Shown: in pieces, positions 1 through 14,130 of the stretch
How the letters are laid out: each line of letters opens with the position of its first letter
How positions within the stretch are numbered: the stretch's first letter is position 1
Assembly (NCBI GenBank): GCA_042218325.1
Contig: JBDGRE010000019.1
Span: forward strand, 1-31,038
DNA from: Candidatus Nanohaloarchaea archaeon
Lineage (GTDB): Archaea; Nanohalarchaeota; Nanosalinia; Nanosalinales; Nanosalinaceae
Direction: 5' to 3'
DNA: 31,038 nt
The notes under the pieces: generated by a model
Database searches by the model: none
Seen by the model: only the letters and a program-made list of their open reading frames with translations
Told to the model about the DNA's origin: nothing
Position numbers and translations under genes: made by a program

Positions 1-47
1 ATCTTTCCGGGAACGTCAGGAGAAAATCGACCGGAACGTACATGCTG

Positions 48-64
48 AAGCCCCGACCGAAATT
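48..64 (-). repeat. Degenerate copy of tRNA-Thr 3' end (att-like)
   Basis: AAGCCCCGACCGAAATT vs tRNA-end AGCCCCGCCCGGGATTT; AAGCCCCGACCG is identical to 2510-2521. Confidence 0.5.
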
Positions 65-207
65 ACTGTATCTAATTTGGTCTCCCAACACCTCTCGACT
101 GCCTTTTGTAATTTATTAGGCTCAGAACTCTATTAAAATTTCTTTGGATTTAAATCCGGTTCGCGGAAATTACTTGAATTTTTAATTATATTTGAGAAAT
201 CAACTAT

Positions 208-1104
208 ATGGCCTTGGACTGGTTCTTTTTTGCATTGTTAACCGGATTTATTTATGGCGGCGTAGAGTTATTTGACAAATTTGTTCTGAATCAGGAGGTT
301 TCCAGAGCCTCCATAAGTGCTATAGTTGCCAAAGTTCCTAACTTCTTAATTTTTGCCGCTGTAGGTATTATACAGACCGAAATTATCTTTTCACTAACTA
401 ACTTTATTTTAGGCTTCATTCTTGCCTCTCTGTACATAGTTTCTTCGTATTTCTACTACGAAGGCATAAGTCAGGAGGATGTATCTCGATTTATACCCAC
501 ACTTTCCGTAAATTCGGTATTTATCGTCATACTCTCATTCTTGTTTTTAGGCGAATCATTTGGAGTATCTGAATATGTTGGAATGTTTTTAACTATAGCA
601 GGAGCGATACTGATATCCGTAGAGAAACCTCAGAGAGGAATCCATATCTTTCAATCCCGTAAAGCGGTTTTGATGGGTATAATTGCAGCACTGCTTTGGG
701 CAGTACGAGACATATTTCTTAAAATAGGAACAAGCTCGGTCGATATATTCCTATTACTTTTCTGGATAGGTGTGAACGGCATATTTCTTACCCTGCTATC
801 CTCTGTATTCGCTTATCATAGAATGGAAGATTCGGAAATGAGAGGTTATGAACATCTCTTGATTATTGGTTCTTTGACAGCTATGGGATATCTTACATTC
901 ATTAAGTCTCTCAGTCTTGGTCCTGTTTCGTTAGCCTCAGTTATAGTAAAAATTGACTCTGCAATAGTTTTCGTGGGCTCTATTATTATTTCAAAATTAC
1001 ACCCTGGAATAATAAGGGAGAAATTAGATAGGGATGTTTTAATCCAAAAGGCATTGGCACTGCTAATGATTATAGCCGGAGTTATATTGATTCAGTTATT
1101 CTGA
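208..1104 (+). CDS. EamA/DMT family transporter
   Basis: 298 aa, about 10 hydrophobic helices in two repeats; motifs LSFLFLGE and GPVSLASVI. Confidence 0.85.
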   Translation: MALDWFFFALLTGFIYGGVELFDKFVLNQEVSRASISAIVAKVPNFLIFAAVGIIQTEIIFSLTNFILGFILASLYIVSSYFYYEGISQEDVSRFIPTLSVNSVFIVILSFLFLGESFGVSEYVGMFLTIAGAILISVEKPQRGIHIFQSRKAVLMGIIAALLWAVRDIFLKIGTSSVDIFLLLFWIGVNGIFLTLLSSVFAYHRMEDSEMRGYEHLLIIGSLTAMGYLTFIKSLSLGPVSLASVIVKIDSAIVFVGSIIISKLHPGIIREKLDRDVLIQKALALLMIIAGVILIQLF

Positions 1105-1108
1105 AAAT

Positions 1109-2317
1109 CTAATTTGTCGGCCAGCTTGTAAGTCTTTCTGACCTTGTCATGTAGGGTCTGGCTCTTCTCTGTTGTTCGGCTTCTTCTCCAAAGAGTTCGA
1201 ATTCGTTTGTTCTGTAACCTGTTCTATCGCTCATTATATGCATGATTTCGTATCCGTGCCATATGTTATCTCTTATGTCTAAGTCTTCGATTTCGCCGTA
1301 GAAATTTACATCGTGTGCAAGGTTGTTTCTTATTTCTCCAAGTTCTTCGAGTCGCTGTCTCGGGTCCTCAAGAGCGTTAGGATAGGCGGTTGATGGCAGT
1401 ATGTCTATTTGAGATATTATCTCTTCGTCAATCCAATCATTCAATGAGACTCCATTGATGGGTTGTGGGAGCTCATCAGGCAATATGCCTGTATTCAGGT
1501 TTTGGGATTCATACTCGTCCTCTATTATTTCCGGAAGCCGGGTTTCGAACCAGTTATACATCAGTATTGCTGAAGCTGGTTGAGCCGGATTATAACGAGT
1601 TGTATATCCGCCCCTATTCATTTCACTTAAATTTGGATGGCCTATGCCATGGTACATTCCGGATGCAATCGAGTTAAGATGGTTCACTCCTGTTGGATTT
1701 GGTTCAAATAAATCTGCGTGTAACGGTTCGTCGATTAGAGATTGAGAGTAAAATTCGTTGGGATTTCCATCTGGGAAAAATGCTGTTTCTGCGCTTCCTG
1801 AATTGGAATTGGTTATAGAATTTTCTTCGGGAAGTCCGAGAATCTCTTCGTATAGGTTTATGACTTCTTCTGGGCTGGTTTCAATGCCGCCTTCTCCCGT
1901 ATAGTCATTGAATTGTCCGTCTTCGTCTAATGGTTCGGATTCGAAATATCCTGGTCGGTGGCAAGCTGCATTTCTCAACTGTTGGAGGTCTTCAAGCACA
2001 TCTATAGTATTGTTAGAGCTTTCCGTAAGGTAGTCGGAATTGATGCTTGTTCTCTGGTTTAATTCCTGATAGTAATCGTTGAAGTTGATTCTCTCGCCGT
2101 CGATTTCAATGGCTTCGTATCCTCTACCTGTGTCTACAAATTCTGCGCCTTCATTTTCTAACTCGTTTTCTGTCCAGGTCTGGAAGAAAGGTTCAATGGT
2201 GGTTACAAGGCCGGTTATCCAGCCGTTCTCATAGCAGTATTCGACACTATCTCTGTGGTTGCTATACGCAGTTGCATCTAACCATTCCGGCAGTTCCAAA
2301 CTGCTTTTCGTATCCAC
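1109..2317 (-). CDS. Hypothetical acidic protein with two HEPN-like Rx4H motifs
   Basis: 402-aa ORF; LQQLRNAACH (R115) and LGEIRNNLAH (R330), each at the end of a helical segment; start uncertain (GTG 2317). Confidence 0.7.
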   Translation of the reverse strand: MDTKSSLELPEWLDATAYSNHRDSVEYCYENGWITGLVTTIEPFFQTWTENELENEGAEFVDTGRGYEAIEIDGERINFNDYYQELNQRTSINSDYLTESSNNTIDVLEDLQQLRNAACHRPGYFESEPLDEDGQFNDYTGEGGIETSPEEVINLYEEILGLPEENSITNSNSGSAETAFFPDGNPNEFYSQSLIDEPLHADLFEPNPTGVNHLNSIASGMYHGIGHPNLSEMNRGGYTTRYNPAQPASAILMYNWFETRLPEIIEDEYESQNLNTGILPDELPQPINGVSLNDWIDEEIISQIDILPSTAYPNALEDPRQRLEELGEIRNNLAHDVNFYGEIEDLDIRDNIWHGYEIMHIMSDRTGYRTNEFELFGEEAEQQRRARPYMTRSERLTSWPTN

Positions 2318-2359
2318 CTAAATTTTCAGTTGTCATAGTTATTTGTTACTCATCAATAG

Positions 2360-2367
2360 TATATAAA
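2360..2367 (-). promoter_or_regulatory. TATA box for the 1109-2317 gene
   Basis: TTTATATA on the minus strand. Confidence 0.5.
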
Positions 2368-2509
2368 CGTTTCGTAATCTGTCCTATAAATTACGGTCCA
2401 ACTTTCCTCGAATCAAATCTAGTCAACCGGTTTATAGGGCTGATAAAGGCTCTGTTTGGTGGAACCAAATCTGGTACAGTGCTGGAGGGTCTCCCGAATA
2501 AGCGTTAGT

Positions 2510-2531
2510 AAGCCCCGACCGGGTGCTGACC
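2510..2531 (-). repeat. Degenerate copy of tRNA-Thr 3' end (att-like)
   Basis: AGCCCCGACCGGGTGCTGACC vs tRNA AGCCCCGCCCGGGATTTGAAC. Confidence 0.6.
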
Positions 2532-2600
2532 TTAGACTTCATACCTTTGGGCTAAGATTCTATCAAAAATTTCCAGAAAGATTCGTGTCGATATTAGCTT

Positions 2601-3116
2601 ATGGTTAAAGTATCTCTGGGGACTGAAAATGACGCTAAAATAGAAGCTTGCAGAGTGGCTCTTGAGGAATTCTATGATAATTTCGATCTTAGGATGTTTG
2701 ATGTCGATGGAGGTATAGCACAACCAATGACTGCTGCTGAAAGCAGAGAAGGAGCAAGAAACAGAGCCAGAAGAGCATTTGAAAAATCGGATTCCAGTAT
2801 AGGGATTGGAATTGAAGGCCATGCTGAACCTATAGATTCCGAATATTATCTATCCAATTTTACAGCCATTCATGATGGGGAGCACTATTGGGAGGGAGCT
2901 TCTGGGAGAGCAAAGCTTCCGAAAGATTTCCAGGAAAGACTGAAGAAGCGAGATGAACTTGGCGATGTTATCTTGGATGAGATCGGCGATAATCTAAGTG
3001 AAAAGGGGGGAGCCATCAGAGTTCTCACTGATGGAAGAATAGAAAGAGCTGAACTAACTGCAAGATCGATTGTTTATGCTTTAAGCGATATGGAATATTC
3101 AAAAAATAAGAGTTAA
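2601..3116 (+). CDS. yjjX: Inosine/xanthosine triphosphatase (YjjX/DUF84 family)
   Basis: LGTENDAKIEA, QPM...GARNRA, GIGIEG, ELG, GAIRVLTDG..R motifs. Confidence 0.88.
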   Translation: MVKVSLGTENDAKIEACRVALEEFYDNFDLRMFDVDGGIAQPMTAAESREGARNRARRAFEKSDSSIGIGIEGHAEPIDSEYYLSNFTAIHDGEHYWEGASGRAKLPKDFQERLKKRDELGDVILDEIGDNLSEKGGAIRVLTDGRIERAELTARSIVYALSDMEYSKNKS

Positions 3117-3140
3117 GAGCTTGATTCAATTATAACTCAT

Positions 3141-3264
3141 AGCCCCGCCCGGGATTTGAACCCGGGATCTGTCCCTCTCTCGCGTTAAACCTTTTCCCGA
3201 AAGCCATGCACGCAACGGCAGGCGCTACGAGGGGACCGCTCTAGCCAGGCTGAGCCAGCGAGGC
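3141..3264 (-). tRNA. tRNA-Thr(CGU) with 49-nt intron at 37/38 (intron 3177-3225)
   Basis: Acceptor GCCTCGC/GCGGGGC with discriminator T; D arm GCTC/GAGC; anticodon stem GTCCC/GGGAC; anticodon CGT (3227-3229); T arm CCGGG-TTCAAAT-CCCGG; BHB helix CTCG/CGAG with 3-nt bulges. Confidence 0.95.
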
Positions 3265-3288
3265 CTGTGATTTTTACACCTCTGGAAA

Positions 3289-12394: not shown

Positions 12395-12592
12395 CTACTC
12401 CAGCGCCTTCCGGATATCTTCTGCTCTAACGGTTTTTCTTCCGTCCTGCCGGGCGATGGCTATGGCCTCCTCCGCGACGTCGCCCGCGAACATCTCGAGG
12501 ACCTTCCTCATCTCCTCGGCGCTGTCACGGGAGACTCTCTTGTCGCCCTCGCTCTTAATCAGTTCCTTCATCTTGGATATAGAGAACTCCAT
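12395..12592 (-). CDS. Archaeal histone (divergent variant)
   Basis: 65 aa colinear with HMfB; RVS and GRKTVRAEDI. Confidence 0.88.
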   Translation of the reverse strand: MEFSISKMKELIKSEGDKRVSRDSAEEMRKVLEMFAGDVAEEAIAIARQDGRKTVRAEDIRKALE

Positions 12593-12709
12593 CTTCTCAC
12601 GTAGTAGTATTTTCCTCAATGATATAAAACGGAACGGCGGCGAAAAAGTATACTCTACTGCTTTAAAAAGTTTATTAAGGGAGCAACCAGAAGAATGAAG
12701 TGAAGGTTA

Positions 12710-12982
12710 ATGGGGGAGGAACTTGAGGAGTTTTTCCTGAATCGCAAACCAGTGCATATACTGGTCAGTCTACGGCAACAGACCACCGAGAACTACGCAT
12801 CGGCTATATCGAGCCAGGTAGACGCCACTTACTCTCACACCATCAAGGTCCTGCAGGAGATGAAGGCCCACGGGCTGGTGGATTTCGAGAAGAAGGGCAG
12901 GAAGAAAGTTATCGAGCTCACATCCCGTGGCGAGAATATCGCCGAGAAGCTCTCACATCTGCTCCAGGAACTCCGGGACTGA
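12710..12982 (+). CDS. Winged-helix (MarR-like) DNA-binding protein
   Basis: YASAIS..DATYSH..GLVDFEKKGRKKVIELTSRG. Confidence 0.85.
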   Translation: MGEELEEFFLNRKPVHILVSLRQQTTENYASAISSQVDATYSHTIKVLQEMKAHGLVDFEKKGRKKVIELTSRGENIAEKLSHLLQELRD

Positions 12983-13092
12983 AACTCCTGCCAGATTACC
13001 TGCGGGCTCTTCCGGATGCCTATTGATCATCCGTGTTTCTTGTTTGATGAGCGGTATTTGAGAGCCCCTGACTCACATCATAGATAGTGTCT

Positions 13093-13120
13093 TATTGGTG
13101 AACATCCAATATTTTTTAAA
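13093..13120 (+). promoter_or_regulatory. Inverted repeat TATTGG-N7-CCAATA abutting a TATA box
   Basis: IR 13093-13098/13106-13111 followed by TTTTTTAAA 13112-13120. Confidence 0.4.
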
Positions 13121-13220
13121 CCCTGTTGCCTTTACTGTCGAGTGAATAAGTGTTTTATGAGTGTTTCCCCGTGGCGAACAACCTTGGGTTTACTTATGTA
13201 TCCGCAGCTACGTTTCTGTC

Positions 13221-13448
13221 ATGAGGATTACTAACATCCAGGACGACGGCGAGAGATTCATAATACACGGTAGCTCGGGCCTGTACGGTAAGCTGCGCGA
13301 GACGTTCGACCAGATGGGCTGGGGGACCTCCGTCACGGAGTCCTCGAAGGCAGAGGCTAACATCCTGTACATCGAGAACAACAGAGATATCGTGCTCCGG
13401 GTGCTCCGCGAAAAGACTGAAGGCGAGATGCCTGACAGGGCCCCCTGA
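13221..13448 (+). CDS. Small hypothetical protein
   Basis: 75 aa, host-like GC3-rich codon usage and acidic composition. Confidence 0.6.
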   Translation: MRITNIQDDGERFIIHGSSGLYGKLRETFDQMGWGTSVTESSKAEANILYIENNRDIVLRVLREKTEGEMPDRAP

Positions 13449-13912
13449 GTGTTCGGTTCCACTAAACATTCTGGTTATTCCGGAGTTGTCCGGCAAAACC
13501 CTCCAACACAAAGGTCCTTTATACGATATATGGCCGAACGCGTTTTTCGGCATATCCTTCGCACTTAGGCAAGGGTAATCCAGACGGATATGGCATATAA
13601 TAAAGAAGATATAATTTCGCGGTCTCTGTGACGGCTGACTGGTTCACTGGTTCCTGATATACCTTCTTTGTTATGGTGTTTCTTGTTTTTCGGCCCCAGG
13701 AACCCGGGTTGTTCGACTTACTCAAACACTCATGGACCCGCTGTTCCTCCGCCGTTTGAACCGTTTCTCTCAAGATCCTCCTGGTACGTGGAGAAAAACA
13801 TCAGGTAGCCGGCGATCCCCAGCGCCTCCTCCGGAGTCATGCCGTTCTGCTCCAGTAGCTCTCCGGAAGGCTGGCTGTGGCACTGCTCCAGCTATTCCTC
13901 TAAGTAGTTCAT
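13445..13912 (-). pseudogene. Decayed hypothetical gene
   Basis: TATA about 25 nt upstream of ATG 13912; MNYLEE*LEQ...EEALGIAGYLMFF then a frameshift into RETVQTAEEQ...; 3' end approximate. Confidence 0.45.
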
Positions 13913-14130
13913 TATTTAGTAGTAGTCTCGATGCATTTTAAAGTAATTAGGATGTTTGGTTTTTGCGAACACTTGATTGTGGGTTAATTTTGAACACTCC
14001 GCGCCGGCCTGTGAGTTCTGGCCTTCCGGCGATTATTGTGGTCGAAGGCAGGTTACAGGCCTCAATGCCGGTTATAAAGAGTTCTTGGCCGTTTGGTGCG
14101 CTTGATGAGCACATCTGGAGGGTGCGTGAT

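Follow-up and report, generated by a model that had tools for sequence, protein, structure and literature searches.

A predicted single-chain tandem-HEPN protein, encoded on a strain-variable insertion at a tRNA-Thr gene of a nanohaloarchaeon, as a candidate ribonuclease of genetic conflict

The tandem-HEPN gene and the insertion that carries it

The DNA stretch analysed in the current study (the window) comprises the first 31,038 bases of contig C11 (JBDGRE010000019.1) from the genome of a salt-lake Candidatus Nanohaloarchaea archaeon of 1.07 Mb, which is distributed over 35 contigs and is rated 96% complete. Near the left end of the window, on the reverse strand, an open reading frame (ORF) at positions 1109–2317 encodes an acidic protein of 402 amino acids (aa; pI 4.1, suggestive of a halophilic protein; 19.7% Asp plus Glu), here termed the tandem-HEPN protein, which contains two Rx4H motifs: RNAACH (R115–H120; 1958–1975, reverse strand) and RNNLAH (R330–H335; 1313–1330, reverse strand). 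The best explanation of this gene, to which we would assign a probability of approximately 0.6, is that it encodes a stand-alone ribonuclease (RNase) in which two HEPN domains form a pseudo-dimer within one chain and which acts in genetic conflict.

The gene is single-copy in its genome and begins with a GTG codon. The version of the protein in public databases starts at residue 7; the GTG at 2317 is preferred as the start codon because the residues ahead of that position (xxTKSS) are kept across homologues and because two homologues have an ATG at position 1. Comparison with contigs of other samples yielded 27 listed variant sites within the ORF, of which 18 fall at the third codon position (binomial P = 0.0004) and 17 are synonymous when each site is taken singly. 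Seven of the ten non-synonymous sites are conservative (Q/E, I/L, D/E, E/D and three N/D), the remainder being L283R, G236S and N166K. Since the variation is mostly synonymous and concentrated in the third position, the ORF is considered to be a maintained coding gene under purifying selection.

Alignment of the regions upstream of the gene in the window and at two homologous loci (L002 and L003) revealed that the final 65 or so columns before the start codon are conserved (2318–2382 of the window, reverse strand; 875–939 of L002; 9936–10000 of L003), that conservation is lost in the remaining intergenic DNA, and that the three contexts are otherwise unrelated. This segment includes a TATA-like box (the reverse complement of 2360–2367) and a conserved out-of-frame ATG, the latter being positioned 19 nucleotides (nt) before the GTG and approximately 27 nt downstream of the centre of the box, a spacing that points to a putative promoter. 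Given that these ~65 nt are conserved in three contexts, the gene seems to travel with its own promoter. If transcription were to begin at the conserved ATG, a leaderless upstream ORF of 24 codons, overlapping the start of the gene, would be read first.

The tandem-HEPN gene is carried by an insertion of 3,092 bp and low GC content at positions 49–3140, together with genes for an EamA-type transporter and a DUF84 NTPase. The transporter gene (208–1104, forward strand; Pfam EamA, E = 1.2e-18) is convergent with the tandem-HEPN gene at a distance of 4 nt, and the NTPase gene (NTPase_I-T; 2601–3116, forward strand; PF01931, E = 1.3e-33) is divergent from it. The GC content amounts to 37–44% in the insertion, to 35–45% across positions 1–3200 and to 43% in the tandem-HEPN gene, as against 59–61% in the next genes and 56.7% in the contig as a whole. 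At its right edge the insertion abuts the 3′ end of a tRNA-Thr(CGT) gene with a 49-nt intron (3140–3265, reverse strand; intron 3177–3225), which was identified by ARAGORN with introns allowed and was missed both by ARAGORN at default settings and by Rfam at gathering thresholds. An earlier reading of the window from its sequence (the original prediction) had placed the gene in a tRNA-linked island, and this description is borne out by the intron-bearing tRNA-Thr(CGT) at the insertion edge. Contigs of other samples confirm the intron by skipping it (position 3176 is joined to 3226 in runs X2 and X4, and to 3225 in run X3); judged from these sequences, other organisms carry the same tRNA-Thr without it. 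Across the whole genome, the intron-allowing ARAGORN run placed an intron in 26 of 42 tRNA predictions, some of which are doubtful (a 2,886-nt ‘intron’, a ‘tRNA-Stop’ and a ‘tRNA-???’).

A 12-nt direct repeat that resembles the tRNA 3′ end forms the left border of the insertion (48–59, forward strand), and a second exact copy is located between the tandem-HEPN and NTPase genes (2510–2521, forward strand). This 12-mer is found at these two positions only in the entire 1.07-Mb genome, while the copy at the tRNA end itself (3140–3151) matches it in 10 of 12 positions. An 11-nt pattern which includes the tRNA copy, and which was picked post hoc, gave three matches as compared to 0.12 expected, a number that was reached in none of 100 shuffles. 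The repeats split the insertion into a unit of the EamA and tandem-HEPN genes and a unit of the NTPase gene, an arrangement that points to two cassette-like insertion events, one after the other, at this tRNA; the contigs listed include none that joins 48 to 2510, or 2521 to 3141.

An empty site was observed in run X1, the probable source sample, in which a short contig of 103 nt (depth 6.4, with 30 letters on the shorter of its two sides) connects position 48 with position 3141, seven letters being shared, and in which the insertion-bearing form is present at a depth of 19. The insertion-free contig matches the first 48 nt of the window exactly, and this part of the window may follow the empty-site strain. 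In run X4, which belongs to another study, the contigs across the insertion carry a left flank that departs from that of the window at position 46/48. Positions 1–55 of the window also overlap the end of contig C15 (its positions 1–55), where the GC content is 0.57–0.63 and a gene starts some 34 nt past the overlap. Nine contig-end pairs of the assembly, the window/C15 pair included, share exact 55-nt overlaps, and so the contigs would have been broken at branch points of the assembly graph, the branch in this instance being the insertion border. The presence and absence of the insertion among cells of one sample would be a concrete illustration of how tRNA genes of these symbionts are sites of cassette-like gene flux.

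With regard to the remainder of the assembly, the short contigs C3, C20, C21, C26, C27 and C33 have a GC content of 42–47%, compared to ~57% elsewhere in the genome; a tyrosine recombinase is encoded on C26, and C3 has a tRNA-Arg pair similar to that found upstream of the homologue in genome G042. These contigs may be further foreign islands or additions made during binning. A second GC dip is seen within the window at 12500–14000 (0.49 versus 0.55–0.60 around it), a region with few long ORFs.

Motifs, fold and predicted packing of the two domains

Both Rx4H motifs had been noted in the original prediction, and both were located at their expected positions in the ORF translation, as were the flanking strings that had been cited as evidence of a repeated unit (VLEDLQQL and RLEELGEI, PGYF and VNFY, IDGERINFNDY and INGVSLNDW). 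Each motif is an Rx4–6H string that is conserved in relatives and has a polar residue after the arginine, the last of these being a HEPN feature in the 2013 classification. Shuffling of the protein (100,000 shuffles) gave a mean of 0.44 Rx4H strings, a probability of 0.066 for two or more Rx4H strings and a probability of 0.00055 for two or more strings of the RNxxxH form. The proposal that the two halves arose by internal duplication was upheld in that a sequence signal is detectable, but this signal is faint and confined to the motif helix: in a comparison of the N-half profile with the C-half profile, residues 103–132 align with 318–347 (P = 0.0017 for a single comparison; probability 15%).

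An AlphaFold2 model based on a 10-sequence alignment has a mean predicted local distance difference test (pLDDT) score of 71 and a predicted template modelling (pTM) score of 0.79. It delimits an N-terminal domain of approximately residues 8–190 (1748–2296, reverse strand), which includes a β-hairpin insert at 59–72 and is mostly modelled at pLDDT 70–93, and a C-terminal domain of approximately residues 205–370 (1208–1705, reverse strand), with helices at 211–223, 246–271, 319–335 and 346–363. The same succession of elements is seen in both modelled halves: a pair of long helices is followed by an insert and a helix, then by the long motif helix, at whose end Rx4H is placed, and lastly by one short and one long helix. 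The first motif is at the C-terminal end of helix 104–120 and the second at that of helix 319–335.

Solved structures were compared exhaustively with the model using VIA-align, for which Z values below 8, as are all of those reported in this study, can reflect common helical arrangements. Residues 1–170 aligned with Csm6 (4rgp_B, Z 7.7 with 146 residues aligned at a root mean square deviation (rmsd) of 3.6 Å; 6tug_A, Z 7.3; 5yjc_B, Z 6.3) and with HepT-type toxins (5yep_B, Z 7.2; 7ae2_A, Z 6.1), and further matches were obtained to AF_0298, YutE, MtlR/YggD (Z 6.2–5.8) and the HEPN domain of AbiA. By their titles and the 2013 classification, the first 14 rows (Z 7.7–5.1) presumably all belong to the HEPN superfamily, and it is the uniformity of this list, rather than any single score, that lends weight to the structural evidence. 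Residues 208–368 gave weaker matches (1wwp_B, Z 5.0; the AMPylated HEPN toxin 8xdj_A, Z 4.7; HI0074, 1jog_A, Z 4.4; AbiV, 9bj5_A, Z 3.7). Csm6′ also appeared at rank 25 (probability 0.38) when the PDB was searched with Foldseek.

Profile searches returned HEPN-related families below threshold in both halves, namely HEPN_Cthe2314 (residues 72–146, 15.8 bits versus a cut-off of 27.1) and DUF6548 (82–132) in the first, and HEPN_RiboL-PSP (299–360, E = 0.0085, 16.5 bits versus a cut-off of 28.4) and HEPN_Swt1 (320–340) in the second; the matches cover the first and second motif helices, respectively. These four Pfam families recur in 2–5 of 10 members, with the Swt1-like HEPN match in 3 of 10, and a Csx1 profile of PADLOC matches residues 19–121, likewise below threshold (E = 0.00099). 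The features of the ESM Atlas placed the protein nearest to clusters at 0.90–0.87, one of which is named RiboL-PSP-HEPN, a result that is regarded as a lead only.

A number of results count against the assignment of the protein to the HEPN superfamily. It reaches no curated HEPN threshold of Pfam, and no family was found for it in NCBIfam or PHROGs. Foldseek returned nothing from the PDB at E ≤ 0.001, the best rows being fumarases at E ~0.8; a profile search of PDB sequences gave three aldolase rows only (E ~0.85), which were judged to be due to chance, and the structure comparison of the ESM Atlas yielded template modelling (TM) scores of at most 0.31, which are meaningless. Of the two halves, for both of which a HEPN fold had been predicted, the N-terminal one matches solved HEPN domains, whereas the C-terminal one, in addition to its lower Z values (5.0–3.7), folded poorly when modelled alone from a 4-sequence alignment (pLDDT 39, pTM 0.36), and for this reason its fold is seen only inside one whole-chain model built from ten sequences. 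Taken together with the sub-threshold profiles and the position of every Z value beneath the caution line, these results would be expected if the protein were a lineage-specific helical protein unrelated to HEPN, whose two Rx4H strings and likeness to a HEPN bundle are coincidental. Such a coincidence is very improbable: the independent weak signals agree on one superfamily and on the same helix in each half, and conservation in the family is highest at the motifs, which fall within the predicted interface described below and would arise by chance in RNxxxH form at the low frequency given above.

HEPN RNases build a composite active site from two motifs, either by homodimerising (HepT, Csm6) or within one chain (Cas13). 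Residues 8–190 and 205–370 of the tandem-HEPN protein were folded as two separate chains along with three controls. The pair obtained an ipSAE of 0.87, while the best of the three controls obtained 0.00; the ipSAE mark is reached by 58 of 80 solved complexes and by 2 of 110 mismatched pairs, and since both chains derive from one protein and solved structures include many HEPN dimers, the pass may reflect likeness to the latter. Contact agreement between runs was at least 73% and partner pLDDT at least 74. The confident predicted interface comprises residues 115 and 118–126 of the N half and 328 and 331–341 of the C half, as well as the first helices of each half, and in the model the packing is roughly two-fold, each motif segment leaning on the other domain as in a HEPN dimer. 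Both motif segments are thus placed within the predicted inter-domain interface, in keeping with a composite HEPN site and, at the level of segments, with the facing motifs that the original prediction had proposed to look for.

On these grounds a single-chain architecture with two HEPN domains is highly probable. Two diverged HEPN domains would pack as an intramolecular pseudo-dimer, each providing one RNxxxH motif to a shared cleft, and the protein would function as a metal-independent endoribonuclease that needs no partner subunit for its active site.

Family, genomic contexts and the case for a conflict role

Few relatives of the tandem-HEPN protein were found: six matches in a word-indexed search of 5.8 billion proteins, seven (179–400 aa, with no longer fused forms) among 1.84 billion cluster representatives scanned exhaustively with HMMER, and eight in a profile search across databases. 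The class was represented by 70 genomes, 28 of them with a completeness of 90% or more; a match at E ≤ 0.001 was obtained in five, the genome of the window included, and a full-length copy in three, i.e. the genome of the window, G042 and G053. The last of these is ‘Candidatus Nanohaloarchaea archaeon strain M3_22’, which encodes the best full-length relative in the genome collection (55% identical). The weak matches in G003 and at a second locus of M3_22 proved on translation to be single-HEPN proteins, the remaining weak match, in G013, being outside the translated set. This second M3_22 locus (6829–8545 of L010, reverse strand) is an apparent operon of three genes encoding 150, 223 and 199 aa, in which the middle protein is the single-HEPN one (RNDYAH); it weakly matches the N domain of the family and has sub-threshold matches to a Swt1-like HEPN domain and DUF4145, and the ORFs on either side have no Pfam family.

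In the 10-sequence alignment, which extends down to 26% identity, the invariant columns are R115, N116, E157, S167, E177, N255, R330, A334 and H335, and the motifs therefore represent the core of the family. Of the arginine and histidine residues of both motifs, R115, R330 and H335 are thus conserved in 10 of 10 members, while H120 is kept in 8 of 10 and replaced by asparagine in the distant proteins P0011 and P0012; the M3_22 homologue, which is outside the alignment, has alanine in place of R330 with H335 retained. Neither the fold comparison nor the conservation of these residues refuted the original prediction. Because H120 or R330 is replaced in these proteins, some members of the family may be inactive, which speaks against catalysis as a universal property of the family.

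These replacements, affecting one catalytic position in each of three members, are in line with the alternative that the tandem-HEPN protein binds or senses RNA without cleaving it. There are precedents for such a function, as inactive HEPN pairs are described in ParA-linked genes and in the Swt1 dyad, and the structural matches include MtlR/YggD, which are non-catalytic HEPN-like regulators. On the other hand, all four Arg/His residues and the polar Asn after each Arg are kept in the window protein and in most relatives, down to 26% identity, which would not be expected if catalysis were dispensable, and no ParA-type Pfam family was found among the four window neighbours and 19 homologue neighbours scanned. 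We consequently regard this non-catalytic alternative as rather unlikely, and the tandem-HEPN protein as probably an active RNase.

Two further regions are particular to the long subfamily and are absent from the distant members (234–320 aa). The first is a conserved loop at approximately residues 220–247 (GMYH...GYTTRYNPAQP; 1577–1660, reverse strand), which has invariant columns from G220 to P247 in the long-subfamily alignment and a pLDDT below 50 at 225–241, and the second is the C-terminal tail of residues 371–402 (1112–1207, reverse strand), which is invariant from N371 to W399 at its conserved columns, is predicted to be disordered and has a pLDDT below 50 at 365–402. It may be guessed that loop and tail serve as sensor or autoinhibitory elements, and for the tail, partner binding or autoinhibition is a candidate function. 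A third string of the Rx4H type, RDNIWH (residues 349–354; 1258–1275, reverse strand), which had not been noted in the original prediction, is situated on the last helix of the C domain; it is unchanged throughout the long subfamily, even in the M3_22 homologue without R330, and is missing from the short members. As an active-site element it was set aside, being conserved in the long subfamily only and its residues not being named in the predicted interface.

The neighbours of the gene differ in all four contexts available. In M3_22, an HD hydrolase and unknown ORFs are found upstream and an ATP-grasp protein and phosphotransferase system (PTS) genes downstream; in G042, a GNAT acetyltransferase and an ABC transporter are present; and a 2.1-kb metagenome contig encodes a divergent neighbour protein which, read from its sequence, has a twin-arginine-like N-terminus. 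No neighbour is shared among the homologue neighbourhoods, the stand-alone status claimed for the gene is borne out, and the EamA transporter and the NTPase were rejected as functional partners since neither accompanies the homologues. What recurs is the proximity of a tRNA: in the three contexts with enough flank, the gene is located downstream of a tRNA 3′ end at a distance of up to 2.7 kb. In the window, 823 nt separate it from tRNA-Thr; in M3_22 it follows tRNA-Pro at 148 nt, and in G042 a tRNA-Arg pair at 2.6 kb. The chance of such proximity is roughly 0.1 per locus (at ~42 tRNA genes per Mb), a back-of-envelope figure. Downstream of the homologues at L003 and L009, no stretch of at least 10 nt from the 3′ end of the neighbouring tRNA was found to recur.

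A role in genetic conflict, as an effector of the abortive-infection or toxin type rather than as a housekeeping enzyme, is suggested by the rare and patchy distribution of the gene, its presence/absence polymorphism, foreign GC content and lack of fixed neighbours, by its conserved promoter region and location on a strain-variable insertion at a tRNA, and by the general biology of prokaryotic HEPN proteins as surveyed in PMC3710099. Several observations weigh against this interpretation. Searches of phage and plasmid collections with tblastn detected no relative, and none of the 67 pattern matches obtained in viral contigs with the 6-sequence alignment was confirmed. The transporter and the NTPase, the latter of a house-cleaning type, that share the insertion do not resemble defence genes, and no known defence gene is adjacent. 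As regards the features of a tRNA-targeted element, a position at a tRNA 3′ end, a repeat and an empty site were observed, while an integrase was not found within 49–3140, the seven tyrosine-recombinase matches of the genome all being on other contigs. Moreover, because the insertion-bearing contig of run X1 differs from the window at positions 31, 32, 36 and 41, the filled and empty sites may stem from separate strains and not from recent excision. In view of these points a defence or toxin role is put forward tentatively, at slightly short of even odds.

The opposite possibility is that of a housekeeping endonuclease of nanohaloarchaea which matures rRNA or intron-bearing tRNAs in the manner of the eukaryotic Las1. 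HEPN enzymes can indeed be housekeeping ones, Las1 being an example given in PMC3710099, and both the many intron-containing tRNA predictions (26 of 42) and the purifying selection on the gene would fit such a task. It is, however, difficult to reconcile with a gene that is full-length in only 3 of 70 class genomes, is missing in part of the same population and has a GC content of 43% in a genome of ~57%; furthermore, no neighbour of the RNA-processing type was seen in the scanned contexts. This function is therefore considered very improbable.

The original prediction also stated that MNT genes, Cas genes and CRISPR arrays are absent nearby, and this was found to be the case: the five NTP_transf_2 (MNT-type) matches of the genome are all on other contigs, with none beside the homologues scanned, the window contains no CRISPR-like array and the 96%-complete genome has no Cas1. 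These findings bear on whether the tandem-HEPN protein might be a Cas13-type effector in degenerate or miniature form, or else an RNase accessory to CRISPR such as Csm6/Csx1. The presence of both HEPN domains in a single chain is indeed reminiscent of Cas13, three chains of which could be aligned over both domains, albeit weakly (9fcv_A, Z 4.9 with 212 residues aligned; 6aay_A, Z 3.9; 5xwp_A, Z 3.8; rmsd 5.9–7.5 Å); in addition, the homologue P0007 bears a precomputed Csm6 Pfam tag, and the sub-threshold Csx1 match of PADLOC points in the same direction. Besides the lack of an array in the window and of Cas1 in the genome, the Csm6 tag of P0007 was not reproduced at E ≤ 1, and there is no room for a CRISPR RNA (crRNA)-binding lobe or a CARF domain, since two HEPN domains and their loops account for the whole 402 aa. 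A derivation of this kind is hardly credible.

The preferred interpretation of a stand-alone two-HEPN RNase may be extended to a minimal, self-sufficient, CRISPR-independent enzyme whose dimer was fixed by duplication in a chain of 400 residues, which moves among nanohaloarchaeal genomes as a promoter-bearing cassette inserted beside tRNAs and which is switched through its loop and tail by an infection or stress cue. This extended scenario is doubtful in its entirety; were it true, the protein would be a novel archaeal effector of immunity or addiction that acts on its own, and would show in a living organism the sort of fused HEPN pair that could have been the starting point of Cas13-type effectors.

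Comparison with known HEPN systems

HEPN RNases play a central part in toxin-antitoxin modules and abortive infection as well as in type III CRISPR signalling and Cas13. Their active site needs two subunits in nearly all systems, and the single-chain form is treated as a hallmark of Cas13. Nanohaloarchaea possess reduced genomes and few recognised defences. A 402-residue, CRISPR-free tandem-HEPN protein would, if true, imply that the fused architecture arose independently of, or before, Cas13, would offer structural and engineering studies of composite HEPN sites a scaffold of very small size, and would add a candidate conflict system to the nanohaloarchaea. The full-text literature searched, a coverage from which subscription journals and supplements are excluded, contains no description of the tandem-HEPN family or of such a nanohaloarchaeal protein.

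With Cas13 the tandem-HEPN protein has in common two diverged HEPN domains per polypeptide, each with an Rx4H motif and presumably forming one composite RNase site. It differs from Cas13 in its size (402 aa compared to 1057–1199 residues in the matched Cas13 chains), in having no recognition lobe, in the absence of a CRISPR array or Cas genes from its surroundings and in showing no detectable sequence relation. The type VII toxin-antitoxin system HepT/MntA shares with it a small HEPN RNase fold whose motif sits at the interface of the dimer, as illustrated by the matches to 5yep_B, 7ae2_A and 8xdj_A; HepT, however, is a single-domain, homodimeric protein neutralised by an adjacent MNT, whereas in the present case the domains are fused and no MNT is adjacent. 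The HEPN domains of Csm6 are the best structural matches of the N domain, and Csx1 is its sub-threshold match in PADLOC. Here, in contrast, there is no type III CRISPR context and the second HEPN domain is supplied by the same chain and not by a second subunit; no CARF family was found in the protein (Pfam, E ≤ 1), residues 8–190 of which are taken up by the first HEPN domain.

Other proteins with two HEPN domains are set apart by their context or by the state of their motifs. CnuE of the type III-A CoCoNuT systems has two HEPN domains, the second with a motif shortened to RxH (PMC11090510), and belongs to multi-gene McrBC-type systems, whereas the tandem-HEPN protein stands alone with two full RNxxxH motifs. 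The eukaryotic Swt1 is listed in Table 1 of PMC3710099 as an inactive dyad of HEPN domains; this dyad is fused to a PIN domain, whereas the tandem-HEPN protein is not part of such a fusion and has both motifs complete. A preprint of October 2026 (10.64898/2026.10.19.760177) outlines a dual HEPN system in archaea of the Nanobdellati, consisting of ParA and two HEPN genes that have lost catalytic residues, and it likewise concerns fast-evolving, previously unclassified HEPN pairs in archaea with small genomes. Ca. Nanohaloarchaea are placed outside Nanobdellati in the NCBI taxonomy, and the tandem-HEPN gene is a single gene without ParA whose catalytic residues are kept. Based on the sequence and model evidence assembled here, the tandem-HEPN protein would thus represent a new family and architecture within the HEPN superfamily: compact, independent of CRISPR, encoded by one gene without partners and with both motifs intact.

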